From Negaprion brevirostris (taxonomy: Eukaryota), in the NCBI GenBank assembly GCA_030324005.1, contig JARDVH010000099.1, forward strand, positions 11,875,723 to 11,939,722: a DNA stretch of 64,000 nt. The letters run 5' to 3'. The notes below the pieces were generated by a model, which worked only from the letters and a program-made list of their open reading frames with translations, was not told the origin of the DNA and made no database searches. Position numbers and translations under genes: made by a program. Position 1 is the stretch's first letter. Each line of letters starts with the position of its first letter. Shown piece after piece: positions 1 through 62,170 of the stretch.

Positions 1-330
1 ATCTAGATCCCTCTGCAGACTTTCTACACCCTCCGCACAATTTGCTTTTCCTCTTATCTTGGTGTCATCAGCAAATTTCAACACCTTACACCCAGCTCCC
101 TCCTCCAGATCATCTATATAAATGGTAAATAGCTGAGGCCCTAGCACCGATCCCTGGGGGACTCCACTAGTCACCAACCTCCAATCCAAATAGCACCCAT
201 TAACACCTACCCTCTGCCTCCTATTTGACAGCCAATCCTCTATCCACGCTAACACCTTACCCCCAACTCCAGGCACCCTAACCTTCTGTAACAACCTTTT
301 GTGCGGCATAGACACATGCACATCACAACA
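1..330 (-). mobile_element. CR1 LINE reverse-transcriptase fragment
   Basis: Reverse strand encodes [21 protein letters not shown] and KFADDTK motifs. Confidence 0.85.
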
Positions 331-334
331 CCAC

Positions 335-1178
335 TGTGATCTACTTGCAACCCCATTGTTTGAATCAAACTTATGAACTCAGCAACTTGTGCTGTTGAGT
401 TCAGTTTTAATGACACCATGTATTCCTCAATAGATACGCTTGCCATGGGATCCCCTCTAGAACTCTTTATTACTCACATCTTTTGTCTGTTTCCGAGTGA
501 AATGTGTCTTCAATGGAATGACCCCTAACTTCCTACCCTTTGCATATTTCAATGCATTGATGATATGTTTGCTATATTTGAATCTGTAGCTACATTCAAG
601 ACTTTCCTTATATAATGAATGGGTTCCATCCTGTGCTAAAATTAATCCTTGAAATGGAGGAGTCAAACAAGCTTTCTTTTCTCCACACATCAGTTCAGAA
701 ATCTGCCAATGGATTCCCTACTGTCATCTGCAGAAGCCCACCTTTACTGCGATGGGATTTCTATGATTCCACATCCGATAAGATTGGTCTCGTCAGCAGC
801 TAGTAAATAGAACCCAATCTATTTGCTCACAGTGACAGCTTGATGCTGGATTAGGATGAATCAAAGCAATTGTGCAGGATAATGGTTAGTTCATTCATCT
901 CATTGCTCACTGCATATTGCGCTAAGTCACGAAAGGGCTTTAAGATTGCTGCATTTGGTCCCAAAAAGTGTCCAATTGCCTCATTACTCTGGAAGGTAGG
1001 GTAGCTTTTTTGAGCTACTACTATGCAGTAGCACAAGTGGTATTCTCCACAAACATACTGCTGCCAAGTCAAAAGGGCACTGCCCATTGCACAATCAAGT
1101 AATGTGTTGCATGGATTTAAATGCCCATGTGATGCCAGGTCTGTAGGCTGTACATTCCAGTAACTGGTGGATCATATC
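335..1178 (+). mobile_element. Penelope-like element, degenerate RT plus start of GIY-YIG endonuclease
   Basis: Frameshifted remnants: VEFSFNDTMY..AMGSPL, DDMFAIF, NGFHPVLK..EMEESNKLSFL, and SNVLHGFKCPCDARSVGCTFQ (GIY-YIG-like). Confidence 0.75.
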
Positions 1179-1595
1179 ACTTTTAGCATCCCCTGTACAC
1201 TTTGCTCTGCTACTCATTTTAGTATCATCTGCGAACTTTGATACACTACACTTGCTCCCCAACTCCAAATTATCTTTGTAATTCGTAAACAATTTCGGTC
1301 CTAACACTGATCCCTGAGGCTTACCACTAGTCACTGACTGCTAACTAGAAAAACACCCATTTTTACCCCCTACTCTGTGTTTTCTGTTCATTGATCAATC
1401 CTTTACCCACACTAATACATTACCTGTAACATCGTGCACCTTTATCTTTATCACCACATCCCACAGGTCCCCCATTGTCCACCGCGCATGTAATGTTCTC
1501 ATAGAATTCCACCAAATTAGTCAAACATGACCTGCCCTTCATGAACCCATGCTGTGTCTTCCCAATGGGACAATTTATATCCAGATGTCTTGTTA
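1179..1595 (-). mobile_element. CR1 RT fragment
   Basis: ORFs with [27 protein letters not shown] and FADDTK. Confidence 0.88.
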
Positions 1596-2376: not shown

Positions 2377-4775
2377 TCCTCCCTCATCCCATTTGAGTGG
2401 CCTGTTTAGGCCACAAGGCGCTAGTAGTGGATTTTACCTTCTCATGCGTCATTTGTATTTTAAGTTCAACCATACTGTGATCACTTCTTCCAAGTGGATC
2501 TCTAACTGCGAGATCATTAATTATTCCTGTCTCATTACACAGGACGAGATCCAGGATAGCTTGTTCCCTCATAGGTTCCATTACACACTGTTCAAGGAAG
2601 CTATCATGGATACATTTTATGAACTTCCCCTCAAGGCTGCCTTCACCAAGCTGGTTTGATCAACTGACATGTAGATTAAAATCCCCATGATAATTGCTGT
2701 ACCAGTTTTACAAGCATCAGTTATTTGTTTATTTCTTGTTCCACTGTGAAGTTATTATTTGGTGGCCTATAGACTACGCCTATCAGTGACTACTACTTCT
2801 TAGTATTTCTAATTTCCACCCAAATGGATTCAACCTTTTTTTCCATAGAACCTATATCATCTCTCACTACTGCCCTGTTGTCAAAGAACAAAGAAAATTA
2901 CAGCACAGGAACAGGCCCTTAGGCCCCCCCAAGCCTGCATCAATCATGCTGTCCAACTTAACTCAAAGCCCCCTACCCTTCCAGAAAGAACAAAGAAAAT
3001 TACAGCACAGGAACAGGCACTTCTTAAATATCGAGTGGCACCACCTTCCTTATCTCCCTGTCTGTGCCTCTGAATAATCTGATACTCTGGATATTTAACT
3101 CCCAGTTGTGACCATCCTGCAACCATGTCTTTGTAACAGCCTCCAAATCATACTCATTTGCGATGATCTGTGCCATCAATTCATTTACCTTGTTTCGAAT
3201 ACTACAAGCATTCAGATAATGTCCTTGTGCTAGTTTTTGCACTCTCTTTTTGTATTTTAACACCTCCATCAATACCATTGCCTGAATTCTCCTTCCTTTT
3301 ACTTTTTTCCTGAATTGTGATGTAGTCGGAACCTTCTTCCCACATGCTAACCTGCTTTGCTTTCTATTAATCGTTATATTTCCCATAGTTTTACTCTTCC
3401 CTTTCCCCCAACTTGCTAGTTTAAAGTCCTTATGACCACCTTATTTGTCCTTTTCGCTAGAACACTGGTCCCAGATCGTTTCAGGTAAAGACATCCCCAT
3501 GGTACAGATCCCTCCTGTTCCAATACTGATGCCAATGCCCCATGAAATGGAACCACACTTTCCCACACTATTCCTTTAGCCATGTGTTAACTTACCTAAT
3601 TTGCTTAACCCCATTCCAATTTGCATGTGGCTCAGGTAGTAATCCACAGAATATGACCCTTGAGCACAGTTCTTTAATTCGTAGTGNNNNNNNNNNNNNN
3701 NNNNNNNNNNNNNNNNNNNNNNNNNNNNNNNNNNNNNNNNNNNNNNNNNNNNNNNNNNNNNNNNNNNNNNNNNNNNNNNNNNNNNNGTTCTTTAATTCGT
3801 AGTGCTTGATAGTCCCCAAATAGGTCTTCTTTCCTAGTCTTGCCTATGTTGTTTGTCCCAACATGGACTATAACAACTGGATCCTCCCCCTCCCAACATG
3901 GATTACAACAACTGGATCCTCTAATATCCTTTCAAGCCAGTCAGAGATGTCCCTCACCCTGGTACAAGGTAAGTAACATACCACGTGGGACTCACGATCT
4001 GGCTTACAAAGGATGCCATCAATCCCCCTAACTACAGAATCCCCGACAACTACCACTTGTCTTTTTGCTCCCTCCTCTTGAATGGTCTCCTGTACCATGG
4101 TGTAATGGTCGGCTAGCTCATCCTCCCTATAGCCCTTTTCCTCAACCATATGGTGCAAGTACCTCATACCCTATTGGACAAGGTCGAGTGCTAAGGCTGC
4201 TCAGTTCCTGAATTCAGGATCCCGTGACCTGCCTTAAAGTCATACCTTGTTGTCCATGACCACTGACCGAATTAGAGATACTTAATCTACTGGGTGTAAT
4301 CGCCTTCTGAAACAAAGTGTCCAGATAACTCTGCGCCTCCTGGATGTACCACAGCTTCTGAAGCTTGGACTCCAGCTCATCAATTCTGAAGTTCTTCAAG
4401 AAACCAACACTTGATGCAGATGTGGTCATTGCAGCTCGCGATAGGATCTGTCAGCTCCCGCATCACGCAACTACAGCACATCACCTGCCCAGGCATCCCT
4501 ACTTAGTTAATTAATTAGTTTTCTTTAAGTTTTCAAAGTTCTTTTTCAAATTTAGCACAGATTTCCGAATAGCAAAGCAGGTCACAGCATCCTTTTTCAG
4601 GTTGTTTTCCAGGAATTAAGATTTATACTCAGTGCTGTTGTTCCGCCCTGTCCCTGGGAGGCCAAGTCACAGATCCCTGAGGCCATTAGATTTATACTCA
4701 GTGCTGCTTGTGCTCCACCCTCTGACTGGTCCCTGGTGACTTCCTCTTGCTTGTGCTCCTCATCGTGACTTCTTT
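2377..4775 (-). mobile_element. CR1 LINE 5' half: 5' UTR, ORF1 (zinc finger, leucine zipper, SGNH esterase) and ORF2 endonuclease
   Basis: ORF1 ATG at 4496 (MPGQVMCCSC..CIKCW), then RIDELESKLQ and VVVVGDSVVRGID..VVIHVG. ORF2 has YLNACSIRNK, KTWL and LDLVLCN..SDH. The 5' UTR carries the direct repeat ATTTATACTCAGTGCTG at about 4621 and 4690. Confidence 0.9.
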
Positions 4776-4813
4776 ATTTGTTTATATCCAATCCAATCGA
4801 AGTCCAATTCAAA

Positions 4814-4973
4814 GTCTCCGTAAGTGAGACAACCCAGATCCAAGCTGACAGGACAGGCTCACCACTTCCTGTCTTGGGCTTGATCTACATGATCCAAGCT
4901 GATTGGTACAGGCATTGCACCTTCTCCAAGGTTTGATCTCATTTGCATCTTAGCCAAAAGACCAAGATGCCAC
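4814..4973 (-). ncRNA. U2 snRNA-headed structured RNA cassette (putative, not an authentic U2)
   Basis: Minus strand starts GTGGCATCTTGGTCTTTTGGCTAAGAT versus U2 ATCGCTTCTCGGCCTTTTGGCTAAGAT (22/27). It then diverges with no branch-point GTAGTA, into hairpin modules. Confidence 0.6.
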
Positions 4974-5008
4974 TTTAAAAAATTGTTTCAAATGAAGCCT
5001 CAGTGTAA

Positions 5009-5245
5009 CCTCATGACTTCAGCCGTGACTTTTTTTTAGTTACAGCAAGGGAGGGAAACACTTTAGTGTTTGGGATTTAACTGTCCCTTTACAACAGCTC
5101 CTCCACAAACCACTTCTAGAAGCAGTGACTGACTATGCACATTTTCCCCACAACAGCCAATCAGCGACACCCCTTCACTACCTTTGCTGAATGCTTGCCT
5201 TCACATGAACACGTGGGGTGTCTTGTGACGGCTGTGATTGGACGT
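5009..5245 (-). promoter_or_regulatory. snRNA-type promoter candidate (PSE-like motif plus distal CCAAT/SPH-like elements)
   Basis: TCACGGCTGAAGTCATGAGG begins at -55 from the U2-like start. AGCCAATCAGC lies at about 5155-5165 and a reverse CCAAT at about 5236-5242. A ZNF143/octamer-like GACTATGCACATTTTCCCCACAA lies at about 5131-5153. Confidence 0.4.
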
Positions 5246-5258
5246 GCTTGGAAGTGAG

Positions 5259-5640
5259 AGTCATGCTTGCAGTATAGGTCACTTGTGTGTGCTAGAAGAG
5301 TTATATATTCACACACCCTGTCCTTTGTAAACAGAAAATAAAATTTCTACGTATTGCACTTTTTAAAAACTAAAAAAAACGCTTGGGGATAGCCACTCTT
5401 TGGTTCGATGCCCATGGCAATGCTTTGGCCAGAGTCAACATGCCCAGTTTGAATTTGAATAAAAGTCTGGAAGTTTCTTTCAGTACAATTCCCCATGGCG
5501 CCACCTCTACAAATCAGTACCCATTTGCCAACTCTTCTCATGCAATATAAATTGTTGCTCCCTTTGAGATTTGGCATTTTTGCAATTTCATCCTGACGAA
5601 CACAAGGCAAAAAGCTCCAACAGCACGTCTCTTTTGTCAC
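5259..5640 (+). mobile_element. Penelope-like element C-terminus and 3' pseudo-LTR with degenerate hammerhead
   Basis: SHACSIGHLCVLEELYIHT..PVLCKQK (GIY-YIG C-terminus); CTGACGA..AAAAGCT hammerhead-like core at 5593-5616. Confidence 0.7.
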
Positions 5641-13500: not shown

Positions 13501-14948
13501 TCATCAGCAGCGCATAGACTGAAATATCCTAGTGAAATCAACGACTGCTGATGGAAACACCCACAACATATATTCCAGGGTGGAGGGGGAAAGAAAATAA
13601 CATTGATTGACCGCACTGTCCTTCCAGTATCTATAACCGATTCTCAGCATCAGTAACCCTTCACATGATTTTCCAGAAGCCGTAAGTGCGGGGTGGGGGC
13701 ACAGATGACAGTAGAAGAATCACTATGATTTTATTGCAGTAACTATTCCGAATTAAATGTAGAAAGCAAATGGAAATGATCTGGTTGTAATGAATATGCA
13801 CCAGCAATGGGGAAAGTACATCAGTTCTGAGAACCGAACAAATCAAGCACAACAAAGGCAACAGACTTTAAAAAAAAAGGGCAATGGCCACCATAGTAAT
13901 GGCAGGATATGTGGGTTCATGTTGTATTTACACTGCTTAACATCCCGCAAGTGCAAGCAAGATTTGTTACACTAACTTCATTGCAGTGTTAATGTAAGCC
14001 TACTTGTGACACTAATAACAAGTGCTGAAATCAGTAAAACCATTCTGAGCACAGGCAAACAACCCTCCAGGTGAAAGAAAAGTATTTGAATGCCACTTTG
14101 CCTGTATCACACTGTGCTGTAGCTACAACATTCTGTGCCGTACACAAAGACAGCACACGTAAGTTTATAAGTGCAGACTATAATGTTCTTGAAAATATAG
14201 CTATCAAATTCAAAATTCAATGACTTCCTTCAATTCAAAATCAACCCACCTACTTTAAATTGACAAATTGTACTGTCGCCATGAAGAATACAAAAAACTC
14301 AAATCAATATTGTTATATCTTCAATAGAATTTATAGGCTTAATTTTAAATACAACAGCACAACATGGTAAATAAATGTTACTAAAAGCATGGAATAACTG
14401 GATTCTTAATTGTAGCAGTTTCAAGTAACTGTGTATGAATCATTTACCAAAAAAGGTACTTCTGACCACAAGTGGGAGAAATGCAATACAAAGTCTAGAA
14501 GTGAACAAAATTTTCTAAATTAAAAATGATACACTTAAATACAGGCATTTCCTTTTAAAAACAAAAGCACTTAATTCTTTCTGTTCCTCATCCTCTTTTT
14601 AATTTTCCAGCTCTCTCATGTCCATTTAGGCTGCACACAATTACTCCTCCCTTGTTTTTCAGTGTAGCAATTCCAAGTAGAGAAAGAAACTGGAAGGTGG
14701 GGAGAGCAGAAATTGTCCTGGGCAGTGAATTCCAGTCACTTATGAACCCAATCAATTATGTTAAGGTACTAATGAGTTATAATCAGTGACAGTTGGGCTC
14801 CCATCCCACTTAACTAATTGAGAGCAGCATACTGAATGTTCTGAATTCTTAGAATCGTGTAAAAATGACTGAATGTTTGAAACTTAATCTCTGGTCCTCA
14901 AATGACTGAAAGCCAGGCCAGTTTTTTCAGTCATCAACATTAGTAAGA

Positions 14949-15239
14949 GTGGCATAGTGGTTACCTCTGCTGCTCACAGCACCAGAGACCTAGGTTTNNN
15001 NNNNNNNCTCAGGTCACTGTCTGCATGGAATTTGCACGTTCTCCCCAGTATTCCGGTTTCCTCCCACGCTCCAAAGATGGTGCAGGTTAGGTAGATTGGC
15101 CATGCTAAATTGCCCCTTAGTGTCAGGCAGACTAGCAGGGTAAATATGTGTGGTTACAGGATAAGGCCTGGGTGGGGCTGTAGTCTGTGCAAGCTCAGTT
15201 GGCCAAATGGCCTCCTTCTGCACTGTAGGGATTCTATGA
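14949..15239 (+). mobile_element. HE1-type tRNA-derived shark SINE
   Basis: A-box-like head, tttgcacgttctcccc core, CR1-like tail ggcctccttctgcactgtagggattctatga. Confidence 0.85.
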
Positions 15240-16002
15240 GCAGTGCTGAAGTACTCCCTGCCACATGGAAGTTTTCAAAACAATGCAGTTAAGGGAAACA
15301 AGATAAGTGTATAAGGGAAAAAGCAACAGAAGGAAATGTCATTAGTGCAAAATGAAATAAGGAGGGAAGAGGCTAGTGGAGTATGAATGCTGACTGAATC
15401 TTCCATTTCTGCGCTGTAAAATTCCATGCAGTATTTTGACGTGCATCCCAGCTATGGCCAGGAGAAAAGGAGAAGCGCTTCAAATTAAACTGGCACAGGC
15501 ACCAGAAAGAATAACAGCAAGCGAGCATTGACAGTCAAAACTCTTCAGGTTTCCAATAATAGCAATTCAAGAATTTGTGTTTTAAAAATATATTCCATCA
15601 CGAAAAGAAGGCATAATCTTATTGAAAGGCAGAGCAGACTTGAGGGGCCAGATGGCCTATTCCTGCTCCTGGTTCTTCTGTTCTTATGTAATAAATATGG
15701 AGCAAGTGCAGAAAAGCTTAAATTTTGTACCTATGGCTTTACATTACAGCTCTGAACTACGCTGCATACTGTCTCTCTCATGAGTGGACCGTGCTGCTAC
15801 AAGGGAACAAGACGACGAAAGACAGCATCTGCACAGCAACATGAGTGACGCCTAATGGAAGCCAGGGGCTGGCTGAATAATTCAGGAGAGCCACTGCACT
15901 TCACGCTCACTTAAGTAGAAGCACCTCCTTTTAACAACAAAAGGAGCACTTAATTTGTCCTTTCCCTTCCTTATCCTGTTTAATTTCCAGCTCTCTCATG
16001 TC

Positions 16003-16262
16003 TGTGTGGAATTTGCACATTCTCCTCGAGTCTAAGTGGGTTCCCTCTGGGTGCTCCGGTTTCCTCCCACGGTCCAAAGAGGTGCGTGTTAGGTTGATTG
16101 GCCATGCTAAAAATTGCCCCTTAGAGTTCTGAGATGCGTAGCTTAGAGTGGTAAGTGGGTAAATAAGTAGGGGTATGGAGGTTGGGTCTAGGTGGGATTG
16201 TGGTCGGTGGAGACTTGATAGGCCAGATGGCCTCCTTCTGCACTGTAGGGTTTCTATGATTT
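16003..16262 (+). mobile_element. 5'-truncated HE1-type SINE with ATGTC target-site duplication
   Basis: Same core and tail as the 14949 copy; flanked by atgtc on both sides. Confidence 0.85.
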
Positions 16263-17129
16263 TATGTCCATTTAGGCTGTATATAATTACCTCTCCCTTG
16301 TTTTTCAGTGTAGCAAATCCAAGTAGAGAAAAAAACTGGAAAGTACGGAGGGCAGAAGTTGCCTTTGGCAGTGAATTCCAGCCTCTCATGCACCCAATTT
16401 TGAAAATCAGACAGGAGACAAACCATTTTCCACCACCACTCAAATAACTTACCCACACAGTATGAAAAAAGCCCAAGCAAAAGTGTCAAGACGGATAGAA
16501 CACTGCTTCAGCTGTTAACGCTACTACAGCAGGTTTAAAAAAAATACAAGACTCCCAAAGGTCTCCAGATCACCAGGCTAACAATCAGAGGTGCGCACTC
16601 CATCTGGGGACAAAAAAGCATAAGGGAAAAGCACTGACCTTGCAGTACATGCAAGGGTGGAAGCATCCAAAACTTTATCAGCTGTCAAGCTGAGCCCCTT
16701 AAAAAAGGGGAGACCCATGAGAAGAACATCTGAAGTATTCGAAGGTGAGATTAAGTGCATTAAAAGCTCAAACTCCCCAACCCAGCCTTTCCACTTTGTA
16801 CGCCTTCTCTGCCTGGGTCCAGCGTCAAATCTATTAATTTTCTTCTTATTGAAAGATACTCAGACATACACCCATACATGGAGACAACCATATAAATGCA
16901 ATTTGCTTTTTTTTAAACTAGCGTTAAGGTGATATTTAAGCCAAAAGGTTTATTTACAACAATTCTTACCGCATTTCTGCTAAACGACTGAGATAGAAAG
17001 ACCTCAAGAGTCCAGTATTCAAAACCATTTTATGCATAGTATCTGATTAAACATAATTAAAAACACAATTTCCATATCAACACATCACAAACATGGGTTT
17101 AGCAGAAAATGCGCCATCTGTGTTAAACA

Positions 17130-17450
17130 ACTTGTGTTGTTACAGGATATTTCACCTAATCACGTGCTCCAAGGCACTTTAAAGGAGTTACCAAATTAAA
17201 TTTGACATTAAGCCACTTAAAGCAGGTATCAGAACAGGTGACCAAAAGTTTGGTCAGTGGAGGTTTTCAAGGAACATCTTAAAAGGAGTAACCGAGGTAG
17301 AGGGGTGGCAAGACTTAGGAAGGGAACTTCTAGAACTTAGAGCGTAGGTAACTGAAGACACTATGTTACAAGTGATTAAAATCAGTGATGTTCAGGAAAC
17401 TAGATCTGGAGGAGTACCAAGACTGCAGAGGGTTGCAGAGATCTAAAGAA
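17130..17450 (-). mobile_element. old L2 LINE 3' end
   Basis: ggtgaccaaaagtttggtcagtggaggttttcaaggaacatcttaaaagg; further remnant at about 18340-18830. Confidence 0.55.
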
Positions 17451-17667
17451 CTGAAAATGCAGATCTCAGTACAGCATAGCACTGTTAACACAGAAAAGCA
17501 GCTAAAGTTACTTGTGGGGTGTTCATACAAATATACAAATGATCAGTAGGCCACTCAGTCCTTCAAGACTGCTCCACCATTCAATAAGGTCATGGCTGAT
17601 CCAATTGTAACCTCACCTCCATATTCCCTCTTACCCCCAATAACATTTCACCACTTGCTCATCAAGA

Positions 17668-18272
17668 GCAAGTATCAATGGTTGCTATTCGGATTGGCAT
17701 AGCCTCAAGATGGGGGGGGGTGGCGGCGGCGGCGGCGCAGTTTAGAACAGAGTTGAGGAGGAACTTCTTCACTCAAAGGGTGGTGACTAGTGGAGTGCCC
17801 CAGGGATCGGTGCTGGGGCCTCAGCTATTTACCATTTATATAGATGATATGGAGGAGGGAACCGAGTGTAAGGTGTCGAAGTTTGCTGATGACACAAAGA
17901 TTGGTGGAACGGCAAATTGTGTGGAGGGTGTGGAAAGTCTGCAGAGGGATCTAGATAGGCTGAGTGAATGGGCGAGGAACTGGCAAATGGAATTTAATGT
18001 TGGCAAGTGTGAGGTTGTCCACTTTGGTAGGAATAATGGTAGGAAGGACTACTACTTACATGGCGAAAAGCTGCAGCATGCTACGGTGCAGAGGNNNNNN
18101 NNNNNNNNNNNNNNNNNNNNNNNNNNNNNNNNNNNNNNNNNNNNNNNNNNNNNNNNNNNNNNNNNNNNNNNNNNNNNNNNNNNNNNNNNNNNNNGCCATG
18201 ATCTTATTGAATGGCTGGGCAGGCTCGAAGGGCTAGATGGCCTACTCCTGCTCCTATCTCTTATGTTCTTAA
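17668..18272 (+). mobile_element. young CR1 RT fragment nested in an older minus-strand CR1 tail (about 17530-18330)
   Basis: Open [41 protein letters not shown]; 3' tail follows the gap. Confidence 0.9.
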
Positions 18273-18973
18273 GAATCTATCCAGCTCTGCTTTAAGAATA
18301 TTCAAAGTCTCTGCCTTCACTGCCTTTTGAGAATATGACTACAGTAGATGCCAAGACAAACGTGGTGGCTTTGGTCAAAGTGGCAGATTTTAACAAAGAT
18401 CATGAACGAGAAGGGATTTCCAGAACTGTGATTTTGACATAATGTGCTATAATTGAAAACAATGTGGTTCAACCCAAGACTGCGGCCAGAGAGGGGGATG
18501 GAGTTCATGAAAAGAGTACAAAATTTGAGGTAGAGCTGGATACAATGGCTTTGTTCTTCCTAAGGCTTAGCGAGAATTGATTGCTGCTCAGTCAAGGCTG
18601 TATGCAATCTAACAACAAAGCAGTGGTGGAAGCTAAGTGTTGGCACAAAGGGAGAGCTGGATGTCACAAGCATTAAAATGAAAGATAACTTTTATGTTTT
18701 CAAATACTGCTTCCAAGAAATTTTATGTAATGAGGAAATAGGAGACAACTATGGACAGACTCTGAGGATTCAAGGTCCATGCTGGGAACCTCAGAGGACT
18801 GTTGGAGTGGGAATAGGAACCACTGGTCTGGTTGGAGTTTGAGGGCAGCATGCCAACAAGCAAGATCAGTTCCACTGCGCAGGATAAGGCAGGAGACTCT
18901 GTCAAAGGCTGCAAAAAGAGGAATAGTGCATCATACTCACCATCCGAGAGGATATTATTTTCACTTTTGCTGT

Positions 18974-19046
18974 GCCCAGCTAGCTTAGCTGGTACAGCGC
19001 ACGAGACTCAACCTCAGGGTCATGGGTTTGAGCCCCACATTGGGTG
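18974..19046 (+). pseudogene. tRNA-Lys(CTT) pseudogene
   Basis: GCCCAGCTAGCTTAGCTGGTACAGCGCACGAGACTCAACCTCAGGGTCATGGGTTTGAGCCCCACATTGGGTG aligns end to end with vertebrate tRNA-Lys-CTT. It shows CpG decay, a deleted anticodon TT and a mutated B box. Confidence 0.85.
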
Positions 19047-19057
19047 ACATTGCTTTG

Positions 19058-19335
19058 GGGCAGCACAATTGACTGCTGCCTCAGTGCCAAGGACCCGAGT
19101 TCAATTCCGAGTTTAGGTCATTGTCTGTGCGGAGTCTACATGTTCTCCCCATGTCTGTGTGGGTTTCCTCTGGGTGTTCCGGTTTCTCCCAGAGTCCTAA
19201 AGATATGCTGCTTAGATGCATTGGCCATGCTAAATTCTCCCTCCGTGTACTCATACAGGCTCTGAAGTATGGCGAGTGGGGGATTTTCACAGTAACTTCA
19301 TTGCAGTGTTAATGCAAGCCTACTTGTGAAACTAA
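19058..19335 (+). mobile_element. HE1-related tRNA SINE (alternative-tail subfamily)
   Basis: B-box gagttcaattcc, HE1 core, tail cacagtaacttcattgcagtgttaatgcaagcctacttgtga. Confidence 0.85.
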
Positions 19336-19862
19336 GAAAACATGGACCTTGAATCCTCTGAGGGTCTGTCCATAATTGTCTCCTATCAATAAACNNNNNN
19401 NNNNNNNNNNNNNNNNNNNNNNNNNNNNNNNNNNNNNNNNNNNNNNNNNNNNNNNNNNNNNNNNNNNNNNNNNNNNNNNNNNNNNNNNNNNNNNNNNNNN
19501 NNNNNNAGCCAGTAACATGTACAAGTATTTTTGGGGGTTTGGTGGGGGAGGGGAAGACAGGAGGAGGAGGAATTGGAAGTTAATATACAAGGACAGTATG
19601 AGCTTGAGAGGAACCATTTGCTATGTCAATTATCATGAAGGTCAGGAAGGACAGTTTAATTGGATTTTTGCAACTAATTTTCAAAATGGCCATTAAATAA
19701 ATGCGCCAATAGGCCAGAGGTTTACTGCTGCTGCCAAGAGTTTTTTGTTTAAAACTCTCACAAATTTTACCTTTCATTTATAAATAGAACCTAACTGTCA
19801 GTTTTAGGCCTTGATAAGTTTACTACTTAATCTGTAAATCACAGGTTCATCAAATAACTTAC

Positions 19863-34192: not shown

Positions 34193-35297
34193 TGTACTCT
34201 CCTTATATGATTGAACATTTGTAGCTGTCTTAAAGTTAAAAAAGTTTATTTATTAGTCACAAGTAGGCTTACATTAACACTGCAATGAAGTTACTGTGAA
34301 AATCGCCTAGTCTTGATATTGTCTTGCGGCATCAAATCACGCCCAGAATTATCTGGAATACAGAACCTATGAAAGGTCACCCCTTGACTGGTATTGGTCG
34401 GAATTTCCATCAATTTAGAGAAACCTCAGACAGTTCGGCTCCTTCAAGAGGTGCAATTTGAGCATTGTACAGTGGAGGGATCAGAAATTGGGGTGGAATC
34501 ACATATCAGGTCCCCTGTTCTTGGTCACTGCCAGATTAAGTTGCAAAGCCAGGGGTAGTAGGGGGAAGCAGAAGTACTGCCCGCCTCCCTCCATCCACAA
34601 AGTCTCATTCATGCGGTCGGCAATACATTCACCAACAAGAAGCAGAGGCTTCTGTAGACCATATTAAGAAAGTTCCGATTTGCAGTCAGGGTCAAAATGC
34701 CACGAGAAAAAGCATATGAAAGAGAAGTACCCAAAGTGGAGAATCCACAATCACACTTGCCCTGCCATACCTCTGGCAGAACAGCAAGAAACATCTCAGA
34801 AACCCTTCCTGTCAGGTAGGAGGCCATACAGTGCTGCTAATAAAGTGGGTGTCCACACCTATTATGCAAATATAATTAATCCCAGGATTTGTGCCAGTTC
34901 TGGCAGCTCAAAAGCTCTTGAAGGATATTATAGCAATTCTCAGAAAACACTCTGAGGAGCCAATCACTGATCTAAACACTGGCATGAAAGAAAGCCAGTC
35001 ACTAGAAACAGCACTTTATACACACTCCAAACACTTACTTCAGGTTGAACTGGTGATCTTTGCATTGACAATGTACTCAGTGGTTCGATTTGGTTTTGTG
35101 TTCTCCCCCCCCCACCGCTGTGCTAAAATAAGCATGCTCAAAGTCTACAACTGCTACTGTGGCAGAATATCAGTGACTTGAACATCTTCTTCAGGAGAGA
35201 GGGAGAACACACAACAATAACAGAAGGCAGGTCAGTCAACGTGAGAAGAGAATGTGAGAAATAGAAAAATTAATAAAGGAGACAGAGAAAGAGCATG

Positions 35298-39615: not shown

Positions 39616-39887
39616 TGGCGGCACAGTGCTTAACACTGCTCCTCACAGCTCAATCAATCCGGGTTCGATTCCTGGCTTGGGTCACAGTCTGCGTGGAGTT
39701 TGCATGTTCTCCCCATGTCTGTGTGGGTTTCCTTTGGGTGCTCCAGTTTCCTCCCACAATCTGAAAGACATGCTGGTTAGATGCACTGACCCGAACAGGG
39801 ACCGGAGTGTGGCAATTAGGGGAGTTTCACAGTAACTTCATTGCAGTGTTAATGTAAGCTTTACTTGTGATTAATAAATAAACTTTA
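39616..39887 (+). mobile_element. HE1-related SINE
   Basis: ggcggcacagtgcttaacactgct..gggttcgattcc head; alternative tail as at 19058. Confidence 0.88.
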
Positions 39888-40600: not shown

Positions 40601-42317
40601 TCGCCACCCTTCCCCTTTAAAAATAGTGACAATCGTTTGTTAACCTTGCTATCCCTTGCAGCCTTTTTCTACATATTAAGTCTTCCATTATAACTATTTG
40701 TTTTGCAACAAATTTCTCTAATCTCCACTTCCATGGATCCTGCTACTTTATCGCTGCTAACTGAAGGACTACAAATAACTAACTCAGTTTTGAAATAGAA
40801 AAGGATGAAAGACTATCTGTAGTGTTACTTATAAACTTGCTTCCCAATGAAACAATCCTTTGTTCAATATTGCTATTCCTCTTTTTCTGATTTTGTTGAT
40901 TTTCACAAAGTGCTTATAACTCAAGTATTTATTGCCCAGTCATGCCGAGTTTGCATCAGGTCTTACGTGATCATAATTGCTTCATATCTTAAGACAAAGT
41001 TGTATTTTAATTTATTGGTTTAATTTCTTCTGCTACTTGCTTAAGGATACATTAAAGCTGATAGTGGACCCCAACCTGACTTTATGAATTCTTGCCTGTA
41101 AACACATATATCAACTTAAATCCACAGAAAGAAAATCACTTGTTCTTTTTCGTTAAATCAGTTATTTCTTCTTGACCATATATTTTCTTCTGAACCTGCA
41201 GAATGATGATCTCTAACACTACTGATCATCTGGACATCACTCAATCATTTATTATTTTTAGGATATTTTTATTCCTTCCAGAACCAATATTAATTAATAG
41301 ACAAATCATATTGATAGACACCTACAGGGATTATAAACACCTAATGGTGTAATCAGGAAGTTCTCAGAGGACAATAATAATTATAAGCCAAGCAATAATT
41401 TTTTACTTGAAACACTTTCAGAACATATGATTATTAACACTAACTTGACGTCAGTCTTGCAGCCTCTATTGTCTCAGTAGCAGTCATATACCAGTCTGTA
41501 TTCACTTAACATGTGGCTCAAGTTCCACCCAAGTTTAAATGCAGAATAATATTCTAAAGCAGAAACCATTACTTGCATCATGTGTTTTTAGGATGCACCG
41601 CATATACTTGGGTTGGAATGATTCATTGTCCAAAACAACACCCAAAATCATGAATTAATTTCAAGTTCAATCATTAAACCATATCCCTGCTAGTTTCACT
41701 GTCACGTCATAAATCAAAATTTTCAGCATTAATAAAAAGATCAAAACGAATGACACAGCAGTTCTTGATCAGCAATATTGTCTCCAAGGTGTGCCTGTGC
41801 ATGCAATGGCATGGCCATGCAATCTGGAACGTACGCATGTTAAAAAAAACAGGCCACTCACTGCACAGAACACGAGCATGAGGCTGATCATCAAACCCCA
41901 AACTGAAAAGCACAAGTGGTTGAAGGGCATAGGAAAAAGTGCAGTCATAATTGGAGGAGGAGCGGAGAGCACTAGCCAGAGGCAATTGTCCAGAAGTGAG
42001 AATTTGAGTGAGAAGGGCAGGGCTATTTGAGTGACCGAGCTTCAAATTGACAACATTCTTAATTCATTAAGGGTTGCAGGAGGGGGGCAACAGAGTTGGA
42101 AAAATTTCCAGGAAGATGATTACCATAAGGGGAGAACTCATTCGGCCTGGTGCATGTTTGGTTGCTGGTGCTGAATTAGAGCAAGACACAAGTACTCCCA
42201 ATTCCAGAGCTCTCAACTGCTCAGGACTCAGCCTAGAGCCGAATAGTCCAAAAAGTCTCACAGCAACTAAGGGGAATCGTCTCATCATGGCCGGATGAGT
42301 TTAAACTTTTTTAAAAA

Positions 42318-42609
42318 ATGTATTAGTGTCACAAGGCAATTTACATTAACACTGCAATGAAGTTACTGTGAAAATCACCTAGTCACCACATTACAGTGCC
42401 TGTTCTGGTACAGAGAATTTAGCAAGGCCAATGCACCCAACCAGCAGCCTTCTGGACAGTAGGAGGAAACCAGAGCACCCAGAGGAAACCCACGCAGACA
42501 TGGGGAGAATGTGCAAACTCCACACAGCAAGGACCCAAGCCAGGAATCAAACCCAGGTCCTTGGGTGCTGTGAGGCAGCAGTGCTAACCGCAGTGCCACC
42601 GTGCCGCCC
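42318..42609 (-). mobile_element. HE1-related SINE
   Basis: Full reverse copy ending gtgccaccgtgccgccc. Confidence 0.88.
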
Positions 42610-43169
42610 AACGAAGAGGTAAAGCTGATCATAGGACTTAATCTCAATGAACACAATGCTCTTTGATGAGCAGTTTTATGATGCAGACTAGGCTTTTGAT
42701 CAAATATATGGTACACGACAATTAAAGACTTAGGTTTCACTTTGGCTGAGCCACATACCATTAGCCTGGAACCCACAAGTTCATTCAAGTTGTTTACGTT
42801 CATGGATAATGAATGAGAAATCTAATGATGAGAGTTTCATTTCACTGTTTGGCAAGATAAATGAATTTTGAAAGTTGTTTTTATGATCTAAAACCAGACT
42901 TCCAAGCTATCCAAAAGCTCACCTGTCCTTTGCAAATTCATCTCTTCTCCTGGAAGCATGAGCCCTTGCGTCAGAAAAGGGAAGCTAACAAAGTAGGTGT
43001 GCAATGAGAGAACAGGAATGTGCCCATGGAAGGAAACAAATGCTTCCTCCAGAGCATGTAGATAGTCACAGGCCCATGGAATGTACGATGAATTGAATTA
43101 AACAGGTTTCTCAAACTACATGAAAGATCAGTAACTTCCATAATCTAAGTTAAAATTTGTGTGTCAAAA

Positions 43170-43413
43170 CTAGGCTTATGTTAACATTGCAATGAAGTTA
43201 CTGTGAAAATTCCCTGGTCGCCACACTCCGATGCCTGCTCAGGTACACTGAGGGGGAATTTAGCATGGCCAATGCACCTAACCAGAAAGCCTTTCGGACC
43301 GAGGGGGGAAACTGGAGCACCCAGAGGAAATACATACAGTCATCCAAGCCAGAAATCAAACCCAGATCTCTGGCATCATGAGTCAGCAGTGCCAACCACT
43401 GTGCCACCCACCT
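43170..43413 (-). mobile_element. HE1-related SINE (internally deleted)
   Basis: Reverse copy of the same family. Confidence 0.8.
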
Positions 43414-44499: not shown

Positions 44500-47055
44500 A
44501 AGGATCTTAAAGACAGGTCAAATCAAATTGGTAAAGGTTGTCATCACAATAGTTTCTTGGAACAATATACTGTGAAACAACTAGGAATAAAGCGATTTTA
44601 GACCTAGTATTGTGCAATGATGCAGGTCTAATTAGAAATCCAGTAGTAAACAACCTTGCAGGGTTGGGGGGGTGGCAAGAATGCATTATTATAAAGCAAC
44701 ATACTCCAGCCCCAAATATAAATATTAAACTTAAACAAAGGAATTACGCATGTACAATAAAAATTCTCTACAAACTGGAATTTGAGGTTCCCCAATACAA
44801 ATCAATACTTTACCAATTGGAAAAAATAATGAAGCTATCCACGACCTATACCCGTATGCTGTAATGTTTAAATGTACTGTTGAAGACCAGAAGTGGAAAG
44901 TGTACTTTTCATTACTTCTGAGTGTTTGCATATTATTTCATGCCATAAATATTGCGCTGTATTTCACTGGTAAATGGAACTCTCCATTAACTGGCATTTT
45001 TGACAACTGGCACTACCAATTCCCGACACCTGCCAGGTAGTAAAGGTTTTACTGTATAAGCAGAAAGCTGGCCAAGATTGATTGGGCAAATAAACTAAAA
45101 ATGCATGGTGATAAATAAAAAGGTGGGCAATTTAAAGAAACAATTACTAGTGTTCAACAAAGCTATGTTCCATTAAATAAACAAAATCTCAAGCAGAGGA
45201 TTAAAAAAAAAATCGATCTGTGATTTAGCAGGGAAGTTAACAGAATCCAAATAAAATAATATTCCAATGGATGGTAAGCTCAAGGTTCGGGAATGTTTTA
45301 GAAACTGGCAAGAACAACCAAAATATTGATAAAAAGGGAAAAAAGAGAATATAAGAATAAACTGGCATGAAAATGAATTGCAAGAAGTTTTACAATAATA
45401 TAAAAAGGAAGAGAGTAGCTAAAGTAAATGTTATCCCTTAGCAAGAGAAATTATTATGGGAAAGGAGAAATGGCTGAGAAGTTGAACAAATCTGGTCTGC
45501 CTTCAGTGGCAAATGACATCAGAAATTAAGGGCAATCAAAAGGCTAACAAGAACGAGGAACATGAGGTCACTGATATCAACAATGGTGTGGAGAAACCCA
45601 AGGGATTAAATGGCAACAAATCTCCAGGACCTGATGTCCTACAGCCTTGGATTCTAAAGGAGGTAGCTGCAGAACTAGTGGATGTACATTATTATTTTTC
45701 AAAACTGCTCAGACTCTAGAACAGTCCTACCCGTGGAAAATTACAGCACAGGAACAAGCCCTTCGAGCCTCCAAGCATGCACCAACCATGCTGCCTCACT
45801 TAACTAAAACCCCCTACCCTTCCGGGGACTATAACCTCCTATTCCCATCCTATTCATGTATTTGTCCAGACGCCCCTTAAAACTCTATCTTATCTGCTTC
45901 CGCTACCTCCCCCAGCAGAGAGTTCCAGGTACCCACCACCTTCTGTGTAAAAAACTTGCCTCGTTCATCTCTTTTAAACCTTGCCCCTCACACCTTAAAC
46001 CTATGCCTCGTAGTAAATGACTCTTCCACCCTGGGAAGGAAATGGTGCTAGGTTAACTGCTCATTCGGAGAGTTGGTGCAGCCGTGATAGCTCAGTGGCT
46101 TCCTTCTGCACTCAAGCTATTTTGTACATCTGTGGAGGCTGTGCCACCATGGGTCATCAAATTAGTTTCTGGGATAAGGCAGTTGGCTATGATGAGATGC
46201 CTATACTTTGAGTTAAGAAGAAAAATAGGTGAATTAATTGAAACACAGATTTTGAAGGTGCTTCACAGGATACACAGATTGTTTCTGCTGGTTTGAGAAT
46301 CTATAACATGGGGGCAAAATCTTAGAATAAGGGGTCAGTTATTTAAGACTGAGATTAAGAGAAATATTTAGAGGGTTGGGAATTGTTGGACTTGTCCACC
46401 TCAAAGGGTGTGGATGCTCTANNNNNNNNNNNNNNNNNNNNNNNNNNNNNNNNNNNNNNNNNNNNNNNNNNNNNNNNNNNNNNNNNNNNNNNNNNNNNNN
46501 NNNNNNNNNNNNNNNNNNNNNNNNNNNNNNNNNNNNNNNNNNNNNNNNNNNNNNNNNNNNNNNNNNNNNNNNNNNNNNNNNNNNNNNNNNNNNNNNNNNN
46601 NNNNNNNNNNNNNNNNNNNNNNNNNNNNNNNNNNNNNNNNNNNNNNNNNNNNNNNNNNNNNNNNNNNNNNNNNNNNNNNNNNNNNNNNNNNNNNNNNNNN
46701 NNNNNNNNNNNNNNNNNNNNNNNNNNNNNNNNNNNNNNNNNNNNNNNNNNNNNNNNNNNNNNNNNNNNNNNNNNNNNNNNNNNNNNNNNNNNNNNNNNNN
46801 NNNNNNNNNNNNNNNNNNNNNNNNNNNNNNNNNNNNNNNNNNNNNNNNNNNNNNNNNNNNNNNNNNNNNNNNNNNNNNNNNNNNNNNNNNNNNNNNNNNN
46901 NNNNNNNNNNNNNNNNNNNNNNNNNNNNNNNNNNNNNNNNNNNNNNNNNNNNNNNNNNNNNNNNNNNNNNNNNNNNNNNTCATGATCAATTTGAATGGAA
47001 AAGCAGGCTTGATGGAGTTCCTGGTCTGCTCCTGCTCCTCTCTCTCATGTTTGTA
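44500..47055 (+). mobile_element. degenerate CR1 ORF2 with nested inserts
   Basis: AILDLVLCND, NKSPGPDVLQPWILKEVAAE, 3' tail after the gap; a minus-strand CR1 tail is nested at about 45737-46040. Confidence 0.75.
44755..45054. mobile_element. Tigger/pogo-like MITE (300 bp) with TA target duplication
   Basis: TA-caataaaaattctctacaaactgg ... ccaggtagtaaaggttttactg-TA imperfect terminal inverted repeats. Removing it rejoins the CR1 LNLNK..AKIDW remnant. Confidence 0.6.
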
Positions 47056-53039: not shown

Positions 53040-53330
53040 GAAATAGAAACCAATAGTGCAGGAGGAGACCATCTGGCCCATCAAGTCTGCACCAACCACA
53101 ACCTCACCCAGACCCTATCCCTGTAACCCCCATGCATTTACCCTATCAGTCCCCCTGACACTAAGGGTCAATTTAGCATGGCCAATCCACCTAACATACA
53201 TATCTCTGGACTGTGGGAGGAAACCAGAACACCCAGAGGAAATGCACATGGAGAGAACATGCAGACTCCACACAGTCACCCAAGCCAGGAATCAAACCAG
53301 TCCCTGGCACTGGGGCAGTAGTGCTCACCA
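53040..53330 (-). mobile_element. HE1-type SINE
   Basis: Reverse copy with CR1-like tail. Confidence 0.82.
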
Positions 53331-53364
53331 ACTATTTTTTAAACTAAGACCTTACTTCTGGCTG

Positions 53365-53720
53365 TGATTAAATTTATAAAGACTGATAAATGTAACCAAA
53401 CGTTTCCTCTTGTGGGGCAATCTAGATTAAGAAGTCACAGGTATAGGTTGAGAAGCGGTAGATTTAAAACTGAGATGAGAAGGAACTATTACTCACTGAG
53501 GGTGGGGAATTTGTGGAACTCACTGCCCTTTGGTGCAGTGGAGTCTGAATCGTTGAATGGTTTCAAGGAGATAGATATATTTCTGATAAAAGGAGGATCA
53601 AAGGATATGGGCAATAGGTGGGGAGGTGGATTTGAGACCAGGGAGAGATCAGCCATGATCTGATTGAGCCTGCTCTGCCAATCAAGGGCTAATTCTGCTC
53701 TTAATTCCTGTGTTCTGATT
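53365..53720 (+). mobile_element. CR1 3' end
   Basis: RFKTEMRRNYYSLRVGNLWNSLP and tail. Confidence 0.85.
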
Positions 53721-53789
53721 GTATTCGATGGAACACCTCCACTGCATAGCAATAAAATGCTATCATCACATTCACACCCTCTTGCACAT

Positions 53790-54020
53790 TCAAGATTTTT
53801 GTTCCCTCCACCGTGGTTTCTGTGCTTTCAGCTGCTGAAGCCCTAAGTTTTGAAACAGCTCCCTCAACCTCTCCATCTTATTTGAGGCGAATCTTTAAGT
53901 TTAGCTCTTTGGCCTCAGCTTTTGGTTATCAGTCCTAATCTCTCCTTGTAAATATGCTAAGCATTGCAAGATACTTCGATAGCAAAGTTATGCGAAAAAC
54001 AACATAAATGCATTGTTGTT
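53790..54020 (+). mobile_element. old L2 3' end
   Basis: gctttcagctgctgaagccctaag..cagcttttggttatc..ataaatgcattgttgttg. Confidence 0.5.
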
Positions 54021-54885
54021 GATTTGTATTTCTGTGGACTGCAGCAGGAAGTTAATGACGAAAACAACTCCCTTTGGAGAAACAGCAATAGTGTAGTGTT
54101 ACTATAACTGCTGCAGGATTAACAGTTTCGGAAAATGAAACTTAACTGAAGACAAACAGTATAGAACTATCCCATTTTCATTAGCACAACAGTAGTAAAC
54201 AAAAAGTAGCATTTCTTTTTCGTAAATGCCACTGGATTATGGCAGTTAAAACAGTACTAATGTGCCGTGTGCGCAAAACATTTTTGATAGCACTCGATTT
54301 ACAAATAGAGTTTGTACTGAGTCAGCATTTTCTGTAGGTCAAAAGCAAACAAAGTGCAATGAGTAGGAACTGATACCTACAGAGCAGCAGTAGTTTAAGT
54401 GGTAAAATCTGGCATGCTGCAATGAATAATGGTTGACAGTGCTCTGCTTCAAAAATATGGGGATTCAGGCTTAATAACACTGATATACTGAACAACTTTT
54501 TGTCAAGTGCCTCTTAACTGGGTTATTTTTGGGGAATGGACAGGTAACATGGAAGCTGTTTTTAAATTGATAACATTCAAAAATGAAGCCTTTTCAAGGT
54601 ATCAGATATTGCTTTTTTCTGCAGTTGTACAAGTGGGTTATTTTGGGAAGAGGTGTAGGAAGAAGACAAATTGCACAAAGTGTATCATGAGTGTTTTAAT
54701 GTTAAACATTGAAGTCCGTTCTTTATGAAGTCCAAAACTCAGATTAAGATAAAATATCTTAGTTCCAGGCTAAATCTTAAGAGGCCTGTGGCAGATGAGA
54801 ACAATCGAGGCCATTGCCACTGCCTTATTTTCTAGGCATGAACAGAACTACAAGTAACAAAACCTTTGTTCTAAAGGAAGCTTTG

Positions 54886-55145
54886 GGTGGCCCAGCACTG
54901 GGTCCAGGTTCAATTGCAGATTCAGGTGACTATATGGACTTTGCACATTCTCCGCTTGTCTGTGTGGGTTTCCTCCGACAGTCAAAAGATGTGCAGGTTA
55001 GGTTGATTGGCCATGCTCAATTGTTGAACTGTGTTGGGGAGATGCAGGGTAAATACGTGGGGTTACGGAAATTGGGCCTGGGGGTGATGGTTGTCTATGC
55101 AGTCTCGATGGGCTGAATGGCCTCCTTCTGCACGGCAGGGATTCC
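54886..55145 (+). mobile_element. HE1-type SINE
   Basis: ggttcaatt B box, HE1 core, ggcctccttctgcac tail. Confidence 0.8.
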
Positions 55146-61545: not shown

Positions 61546-61944
61546 CTGTACAGGATTGAACATAAAAAAAAGGCACAATGCATAAATAAAGTTCTGCCAA
61601 TGAATCGTCTCAGATATCCCTTAAAATTTAGCACAAGAAAGTAACTGCCGAAAGTTAAGTTTCAATGGCATATGAACATGAGGTAGCATAGCATTGGTGA
61701 AAAGACAACTTAAGTATAACACAGCAAAAGATGACAGGCTATCTCCAAGTATTTGAACACCACTTTGGGCTTGGCAGGTGGAATTTCAGGAAGAATATTG
61801 CGGTCTTGGTGGTGGGGGATGGCATGGGAGGTGGGTGAGGCAGTGATTCACCAAAATGGTACCAACAGAATTGAGCTATGAGGACAAGAATTAAATAGTT
61901 CAGAAGGCTTGTATTCCCTTGAGCCCATCAGTTTAATAAGTGTA

Positions 61945-62170
61945 AAGTTTATTTATTAATCACAAGTAAGGCTCACATTAAAACTGCAAGAAGGCACTGT
62001 GAAAGTCCCCTAGTTGCCACAGTCCACTGCCTGTTTGGATCAATGCCTAAGCAGCATGTCTTTCAAAACGTGGGAGGAAACCTACGCAGACACGGGAAAA
62101 GCTCCACACAGTCAGTGACCCAAGCCGGGAATTGAACCCAGGTCCCTGGCACTGTGAAGCAGCAGTGCTG
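61945..62170 (-). mobile_element. HE1-related SINE inserted in a plus-strand CR1 remnant (about 61740-62520)
   Basis: Reverse SINE copy; the CR1 sequence resumes on both sides. Confidence 0.8.

Follow-up and report, generated by a model that had tools for sequence, protein, structure and literature searches.

A candidate snRNA-mosaic retroposon with U2-derived and U4-like pieces in the 5' UTR of a decayed CR1-group LINE

Introduction

At 4814-4973 on the minus strand of the window analyzed here (the whole stretch of 64,000 nt) there is a sequence which begins like U2 snRNA and lies upstream of the ORF1 of a LINE. The question raised by this locus is what such a sequence is and how it came to lie there. 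A previous sequence-only reading regarded it as a U2-headed RNA starting at 4973, which would serve either as leader or promoter of a CR1 LINE or as a separately expressed small RNA. Coordinates are those of the window, and minus-strand features are read from higher to lower numbers.

Several associations between snRNAs and retroelements have been described. The excerpts of the SINEU description on which we draw (Kojima 2015, PMC4494074) present SINEU-1, -2 and -3 as crocodilian elements derived from U1 and U2 only, and leave their mode of transcription open. SINEU elements are mosaics with internal deletion, partial duplication, oligo-T runs and dependence on flanking promoters; the first two, along with template switching, are described there as steps of their assembly, and SINEU-3 is a U2 with an internal deletion (PMC4494074). 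According to the parts of PMC4476161 used here, 3'-truncated copies make up 65% of human snRNA retrocopies, and no other kind is as common in the human genome as 3'-truncated copies at T/A targets. Keno and Utopia are U2-targeting LINEs, which in the sections consulted of PMC4640811 insert before U2 nt 39 and keep the remaining U2 as their 3' flank.

Results

The match to the 5' end of U2 was confirmed, with 4973-4947 (-) sharing 22 of its 27 nt with U2 nt 1-27. The U2 reference was the commonest U2 5' sequence among 52 loci retrieved by a scan of a genome contig collection, 49 of which are U2 genes or fragments. Under an order-2 Markov model 6e-5 such matches are expected per window for this U2 27-mer and 0.03 for any U2 27-mer, and the second-best site in the window reaches 17/27. 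With one inserted G, U2 nt 4-33 are covered at 26 of 31 columns (4940..4970), and the match stops where the branch-point sequence would begin. The claimed absence of this sequence and of the rest of U2 holds as well, since the remainder scores no better than 465-470 of 500 shuffles. The Rfam U2 model (RF00004) gives 14 bits against a cut-off of 46, over model positions 7-26 only. The locus has neither the full-length RF00004 match above 46 bits nor the branch-point sequence of a U2 gene, in agreement with its proposed non-spliceosomal nature. A known ribozyme or other Rfam family was rejected, as the Rfam scan of the window gave no gathering-level match to any family and the weak ones (E 0.67-9.5) were treated as chance. 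No duplication of at least 5 nt was found around the U2 fragment alone. Judged by its sequence, the descent of this piece from U2 is supported.

The U2 piece has an extended stem I. The proposed 11-bp hairpin with two G-U pairs, 4970-4945, is the MFE structure (-15.6 kcal/mol, none of 200 shuffles as good) and the dominant fold of the piece. Among 20,000 simulated mutants per setting, carrying the same number of changes as the window's U2 piece, 0.07-0.1% reach this stability; the stabilization therefore exceeds random drift. Not every change in the stem stabilizes it: one turns a C-G pair into U-G, and one that repairs a mismatch falls at a CpG.

A second copy of the sequence was reached through proteins. 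One of six frames of the cassette, searched with phmmer against 1.84 billion representatives, had a sole match, P0001 (74 aa, E 7.7e-7), a singleton on a contig of 1548 nt. The most plausible view of this protein is that a second copy of the element was spuriously translated, which makes at least one other copy. Allowing for one frameshift, P0001 follows 5010-4835 colinearly and is compatible with up to 154 of the 177 nt there. For its residues 16-27 the best-fitting site of the window is 5010-4975, where 32 of 36 nt agree (27 at the next best), so the shared unit reaches at least 37 nt past 4973. The first 15 residues misfit the upstream flank of the window, 35% of random sites fitting as well, and the two copies therefore differ beyond ~5010-5022. 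P0001 ends at 4835 and covers no terminal stem-loop, no tail and no 5' arm of the first hairpin of the element, all described below.

P0001 forces 16 base changes in 4972-4835. Two of them mend helix mismatches of the window (4932, 4851) and two break pairs (4968-4947, 4873-4852). Four lie in a hairpin at 4921-4905, where they break two further pairs in the register of the window and fit a 6-bp stem shifted by one base (three pairs certain, three possible). Of the other eight, four would permit pairing and four fall outside stems. As for the three pairs which extend U2 stem I, one is kept in P0001, one is impossible and one is possible either way from the translation. Taken together the changes are suggestive, short of a covariation test. 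A 29-codon uORF with three in-frame ATGs (4859-4948 (-)) begins at 4948 inside the U2-like stem; its stop is missing from P0001.

Further searches were made for relatives of the element. A protein word-index search gave nothing with the 42-aa frame and only P0001 with the two-row alignment; the top ESM Atlas score for P0001, 0.77, is uninformative. No further copies were found within the 64-kb window by blastn, motif search and nhmmer, and there was no match to the element in plasmid and phage sequences. In the genome contig collection the loci other than the U2 genes and fragments were three chance matches, and none of the 52 had the window's continuation.

The second copy bears on where the element begins and on the supposed promoter. 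A start at 4973 does not agree with P0001, which runs colinear from 5010 to 4835, nor with the candidate target-site duplication described below, which sets the 5' edge at 5023. The octamer at 4941..4948 (-) is incidental, part of the U2-derived sequence, and corresponds to U2 nt 26-32 altered by the inserted G and a G>A change. There are six octamers in the window against 6.45 expected, and P0001, with forced changes at 4945 and 4942, cannot carry this one, so that its role as an enhancer was rejected on both its chance frequency and its incompatibility with P0001. A promoter or gene of its own was likewise not borne out: there is no exact octamer in the 297 nt upstream and, by eye, no fish-type PSE at the expected distance. 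A TCACC-type PSE is absent at ~-61 from either 4973 or 5042, and by eye a one-mismatch PSE core lies at -55 from 4973. snRNA genes lack an internal promoter, as stated in the excerpts of PMC4494074. A tRNA head was looked for in the element and none was found.

The U2 piece is flanked by pieces that resemble U4. These, together with a 53-nt tandem duplication and a flanking direct repeat, had been missed in the sequence-only reading. Upstream lies a hairpin like the U4 5' stem-loop (U4 nt 21-51) at 4993..5021 (-), with a 7-bp lower stem, a tandem GA/AG internal loop and a 5-nt loop. Its segment 5014-4997 agrees at 14 of 15 fixed positions with the human U4 5' stem-loop strands as printed in PMC2952850, the single mismatch being a CpG transition; the match is unique in the window, with 0.04 expected at up to 2 mismatches. 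The hairpin has a fold z of -2.07 (7/200 shuffles), and pairing in its lower stem is kept through three double changes relative to U4 (by eye, against RNU4-2 as given in PMC13253345). The internal loop in this copy has the tandem G.A/A.G pairs and a bulge of 2 nt instead of the 3 of a canonical K-turn. The hairpin is followed by a junction at 4972..4991 (-), in which 5 nt like U4 62-66 precede 15 nt like U4 116-130, the Sm-site region. Here 4986-4972 matches U4 116-130 at 12 of 15 positions (by eye against RNU4-2), without the G that closes a canonical Sm site. The binomial probability of 10 or more of 13 is 3e-4 to 1.5e-3 per site; the Sm-site-like stretch is of low complexity and carries little weight alone. 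P0001 forces a G at 4986, which is the U4 base. Downstream, 4813..4830 (-) matches the U4 terminal stem-loop (U4 nt 129-143) at 15/15 with a 3-nt insertion (by eye against RNU4-2), a match reached by none of 100 shuffles and containing a 10-mer expected 0.02 times per window.

These pieces follow the order of U4 on one strand, that is 5' stem-loop, Sm-like stretch and terminal stem-loop, with the U2 piece and the duplicated 53-nt unit wedged between the latter two. When the 141 nt at 4971-4831 are set aside, the flanks read as U4 116-143 at 25/28 plus a 3-nt insert (by eye). U4 nt 1-20, ~53-61 and 67-115 have, by eye, no counterpart in the element; they include all U6-pairing segments (stems II, I and III, delimited as in the part of PMC13253345 used here) and the 3' stem-loop. 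The element is no U4 snRNA gene, having neither the U6-pairing stems II and I nor the 3' stem-loop nor a match to the Rfam U4 model (RF00015), which was silent at E up to 10 even on 66 nt. Compared with the whole UTR, two divergent U4 genes were equaled by 110 and 176 of 300 shuffles, and compared with 5025-4974 by 14-16/300 at best.

A looser double match, hairpin-type and then 10-mer in order within 250 nt, appeared in 10 of 102,334 decoy trials, for which 208 decoy RNAs and criteria looser than the observed matches were used. A single match alone is not rare, at 0.6% (hairpin-type) and 2.4% (10-mer) per RNA per 250 nt. The idea of a U4 origin preceded the tests, whose criteria were fitted later, and the full U4 sequence was compared by eye, not program-aligned. 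We nevertheless consider it likely, by sequence resemblance, that the flanking pieces descend from U4; both this ancestry and the 12-nt target-site duplication are supported STATISTICALLY but post hoc. An origin of the UTR or the 53-nt units from U1, U3, U5, U6, 5S or SRP was rejected, none being significant (best 10/300 among 88 tests).

Unit 1 of the 53-nt tandem duplication, at 4888..4940 (-) with repeat families D5 and D12, opens with a motif like U2 nt 24-30 and holds the 6-bp hairpin 4921-4905; unit 2 follows at 4835..4887 (-). Their global alignment scores 33.5, which none of 2000 shuffles reached, and against 11 snRNA references the units gave no significant match. They have two alternative pairings, nested (~0.6) and side by side (~0.3), with a fold z of -2.44 (8/300 shuffles). 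The proposal that all of 4814-4973 is a structured RNA was not confirmed: this region folds modestly better than shuffles (z -2.4, 4/300), but the opposite strand does equally well (z -2.6, 4/300).

The outer boundaries are suggested by a 12-nt direct repeat, a candidate target-site duplication. The upstream copy (5024..5035 (-), family D7) has its start in an A-run, and two bases separate its end from the U4-like hairpin. The downstream copy (4764..4775 (-)), 11/12 identical to it, follows short repeats and an A-rich run. Between the copies, upstream of the decayed ORF1, lies a unit of 248 nt, 5023-4776 (-). With the same geometry slid along the window, a repeat as good was found in 1 of 1137 null placements when anchored and in 4 of 1137 anywhere, as well as in 8 of 3000 shuffles. 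The candidate 3' tail, 4776..4812 (-), consists of short imperfect repeats (family D11) and then the A-rich run. This run has 11 A among its 15 nt (4787-4773) and shares 3 nt with the repeat copy, and a clean poly(A) tail is lacking. The repeat match extends by 6 nt across a 9-nt gap to 22/25 columns, which makes the 5' edge ambiguous (5023 or ~5010). An edge at ~5010 would show microhomology to U4 nt 30-35; both edges agree with P0001. Since 13 families of short direct repeats occur in the region, the flanking repeat could also be a duplication within the UTR, and the boundaries of the 248-nt unit hold only if the direct repeats mark its ends.

The host of this unit is a LINE with an ORF1 of CR1/L2 type, here called CR1-group. 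Its decayed ORF1 (3416..4496 (-)), with a Cys-rich N-terminus and an SGNH esterase as in that group, begins with ATG 4496. Its entire length can be aligned colinearly with P0002, a protein of 318 aa which carries the PF13472 esterase (E 4e-12). By tblastn the ORF falls into six pieces, spread over three frames and sharing 51-85% identity with that protein. Frameshifts and stops interrupt it, as do an internal duplication and an assembly gap; split in this way, it marks the LINE copy as dead. The match to the ORF1 esterase structure PDB 4C1B is weak (E 0.047), and clusters resembling P0002 are labelled only 'Chordata'. The decayed start of ORF2 (2380..3260 (-), translation read by eye) contains motifs that we take to be those of an APE-type endonuclease and has no Pfam or PDB match; ORF2 is cut by an assembly gap at 2376-2264. 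An RT (PF00078) at 1-378 sits beyond a gap and other repeats and may belong to another LINE copy. The downstream part of the 5' UTR, 4497..4763 (-), has an internal duplication spaced 69 nt (families D1, D4). The upstream part, 5036..5260 (-), probably belongs to the same UTR judging from its sequence; we presume its motifs to be CCAAT, E-box and Ets-like. Its outer limit is an older opposite-strand repeat at ~5260, inferred from the translation and from a related repeat end at 58.5 kb. The direct repeat closes before the LINE ORFs, and the true 3' end of the LINE is lost behind the gap. We found no partner LINE 3' end within the window and no convincing duplication at two candidate LINE 3' ends. 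The earlier placement relative to the LINE is correct as to the strand, shared with ORF1 at ATG 4496, and not as to a U2 'head' at the LINE 5' end, since the second copy runs 37 nt further upstream.

Discussion

The U4-like flanks, the 53-nt duplication and the direct repeat point to an inserted snRNA-mosaic retroposon rather than a LINE leader. We estimate at roughly 55% the probability that 5023-4776 (-) is a 248-nt SINEU-like retroposon of this kind, inserted in the 5' UTR of a CR1-group LINE; the case is built from one decayed DNA copy and one translation. On this explanation a U4 retrocopy would have lost nt 1-20, ~53-61 and 67-115 and would have gained, between the Sm site and the terminal stem-loop, a 3'-truncated U2 and a stem-loop unit, either by template switching of a LINE reverse transcriptase or by tailless insertion. 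The retroposon may have been copied in trans by an APE-endonuclease LINE nicking at A/T runs. Runs of T6 and T4, which would stop Pol III, together with the lack of a visible snRNA promoter, suggest transcription from upstream. LINE 5' UTRs carry Pol II promoters, and a retroposon without a promoter of its own could have relied on read-through Pol II transcription supplied by such a UTR. Its hairpins may have been kept in source copies for RNA stability or for recognition by LINE proteins. The copy in the window is a fossil, neither a spliceosomal RNA nor a LINE promoter.

The likeness to SINEU was judged from the published description, as far as the excerpts of PMC4494074 go, and not from SINEU sequences. 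Like SINEU, the element is a short non-coding unit (<500 nt, here 248 nt) made of Pol II snRNA fragments, with partial duplications, oligo-T runs, no internal promoter and insertion into another transposon; it shares with SINEU-2 the presence of two snRNAs in one unit and with SINEU-3 an internal deletion. In contrast to SINEU, which the excerpts limit to U1 and U2 and to crocodilians, it has a U4-like frame with U2 inside; its host is a CR1-group 5' UTR instead of Mariner-N4, its stems are remodeled and it has no clean poly(A). The 5' head of SINEU derives from U1 or U2, whereas here U2 sequence occurs only inside the unit, its 5' end is taken by a U4-like piece and there is no U1 match. Because this defining head is missing, we do not file the element as a member of SINEU.

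The Tx1 LINEs with U1 or U2 heads named in the excerpts of PMC4494074 (Tx1-2_Crp, Tx1-4_AMi and Tx1-11_Crp) also carry sequence of snRNA origin ahead of their ORFs and in the same orientation, but in the window ORF1 belongs to the esterase (CR1/L2) type, and a direct repeat, with probable UTR beyond each copy, encloses the snRNA pieces. As in the tailless snRNA retrocopies and U6/LINE chimeras described in the consulted parts of PMC4476161, the U2 fragment runs from the 5' end of the snRNA into a single-stranded stretch, where it breaks off, and the target is A/T-rich. Those are single-snRNA events, unlike the multi-part unit found here in at least two copies, with no duplication around the U2 piece alone. 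With Keno and Utopia, as presented in the sections used of PMC4640811, the locus shares a U2 5' fragment upstream of LINE sequence. Identity with them was rejected, since the U2 match ends at nt 33 while they insert before nt 39, and no U2 remainder is present in the window.

The next explanation, which we regard as unlikely and still as the strongest of the rivals, is that an snRNA mosaic entered a CR1 master copy once and now travels only as a structured domain of its 5' UTR, where it would influence in cis the stability of the LINE RNA, ORF1 translation (through the 29-codon uORF at 4948) or RNP assembly. The common strand, the colinearity with the UTR and a complete ORF1 start, the stabilization of the stem beyond drift and the absence of a clean poly(A) tail are all consistent with it. 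LINE copies are often 5'-truncated; such truncation would also give P0001 another flank, and P0001 could be a LINE copy truncated near 5010. However, the homology of P0001 stops at 5010-5022, the edge set independently by the direct repeat, so that truncation needs a coincidence; moreover P0001 ends at 4835, and no retrieved second copy is tied to a CR1 UTR.

It is improbable that the locus is low-copy debris without function or mobility of its own, that is, a 3'-truncated U2 retrocopy in an old repeat, with templated (quasi-palindrome) mutation having perfected its hairpins and chance accounting for the direct repeat and for the U4 matches. The silence of the Rfam U4 model, the frequency of single U4-type matches, the equally good folding of the opposite strand and the single relative in protein searches agree with this. 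Against it, both U4 matches in order have a chance of ~1e-4 per RNA-region, or ~1e-3 over ten candidate RNAs, and the anchored direct repeat one of ~1e-3 to 3e-3. It would also be surprising, we infer, for a short contig to match exactly this locus were the sequence single-copy.

A slimmer chance is left for a variant of the retroposon reading, in which retroposons of a non-crocodilian family came to mimic an snRNP. Such an RNA would have dropped the U6-pairing segments of U4 and kept the 15.5K/Snu13 K-turn, the Sm site and the terminal stem-loop together with a locked U2 stem I; it would be stabilized and returned to the nucleus by the Sm/SMN pathway and would borrow the promoters of the CR1 5' UTR. 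The U2-headed leader or small RNA starting at 4973 is the least probable of all, for while 4973 does align ungapped with U2 nt 1 after a T/A run, and some crocodilian Tx1 LINEs carry U1 or U2 heads (in the excerpts of PMC4494074), the second copy shares 37 nt upstream of 4973 (32/36 nt), the octamer is at chance level and not conserved, no PSE lies at the fish distance, and snRNA genes have, by the same excerpts, no promoter inside them.

In the literature searched, whose coverage lies outside Repbase, Dfam and subscription journals, there was no description of such an element. If the retroposon reading is true, a U4/U2 mosaic in another chordate lineage would mean an independent origin and would be the first with U4 in that literature, and its location in a LINE 5' UTR offers a concrete test of the borrowed-promoter idea. 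Should a consensus keep a true K-turn and Sm site, this would be a mobile element using snRNP biogenesis; if the locus is low-copy debris or already in Repbase or Dfam, it is a minor matter of annotation.

Other repeats and U2 loci

Several further repeats were observed around the LINE. An 18-nt sequence is present on either side of a 100-N gap in ORF1 (3669-3804) and is probably an assembly overlap, and a short internal duplication lies in ORF1 near 3925-3860. The ORF2 endonuclease is split at 2883-3022 (-) by a 38-nt duplicated 3' tail of LINE/SINE type, which we take to resemble the HE1/HER1 tail; similar tails are at 2194-2237 and 45,736-45,823. The whole LINE region is bracketed by two decayed pieces of an older opposite-strand retroelement, 380-1180 (+) and ~5260-5640 (+), with a related 3' end at ~58,900-58,480 (-). 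Their translations had no Pfam match and presumably resemble Penelope RT and GIY-YIG parts. RT fragments (PF00078) at 1-378 (-) and 17,600-18,094 (+) share 90% identity along 180 nt. One family of dispersed repeats, up to ~275 nt long and with 70-90% identity (13,961-19,400, 34,236-34,312, 39,617-39,887, 42,311-43,343, 53,043-55,144 and 61,943-62,169), in which no tRNA gene was called, is probably a SINE or LINE tail.

The 49 U2 loci among the 52 (L001-L052) come from eukaryotes, as U2 genes or pieces of them, but stand in records of bacterial genomes and reflect contamination of those assemblies; some loci stand in arrays with 5S, U1, U4, U5, U6, SRP or tRNA genes. A U2 variant with an altered branch-point recognition sequence was seen in L042 (1491-1680, 150.8 bits), L004, L027 and L030, in L027 and L030 alongside tandem truncated U2 5' fragments. 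Other U2 copies are truncated at nt 33 (L018, near 1500 (-), the same point as in the window), ~nt 41 and ~nt 36 (L006, L026), some of this group within U2/5S arrays, and these truncated copies are possibly insertions of U2-targeting elements.
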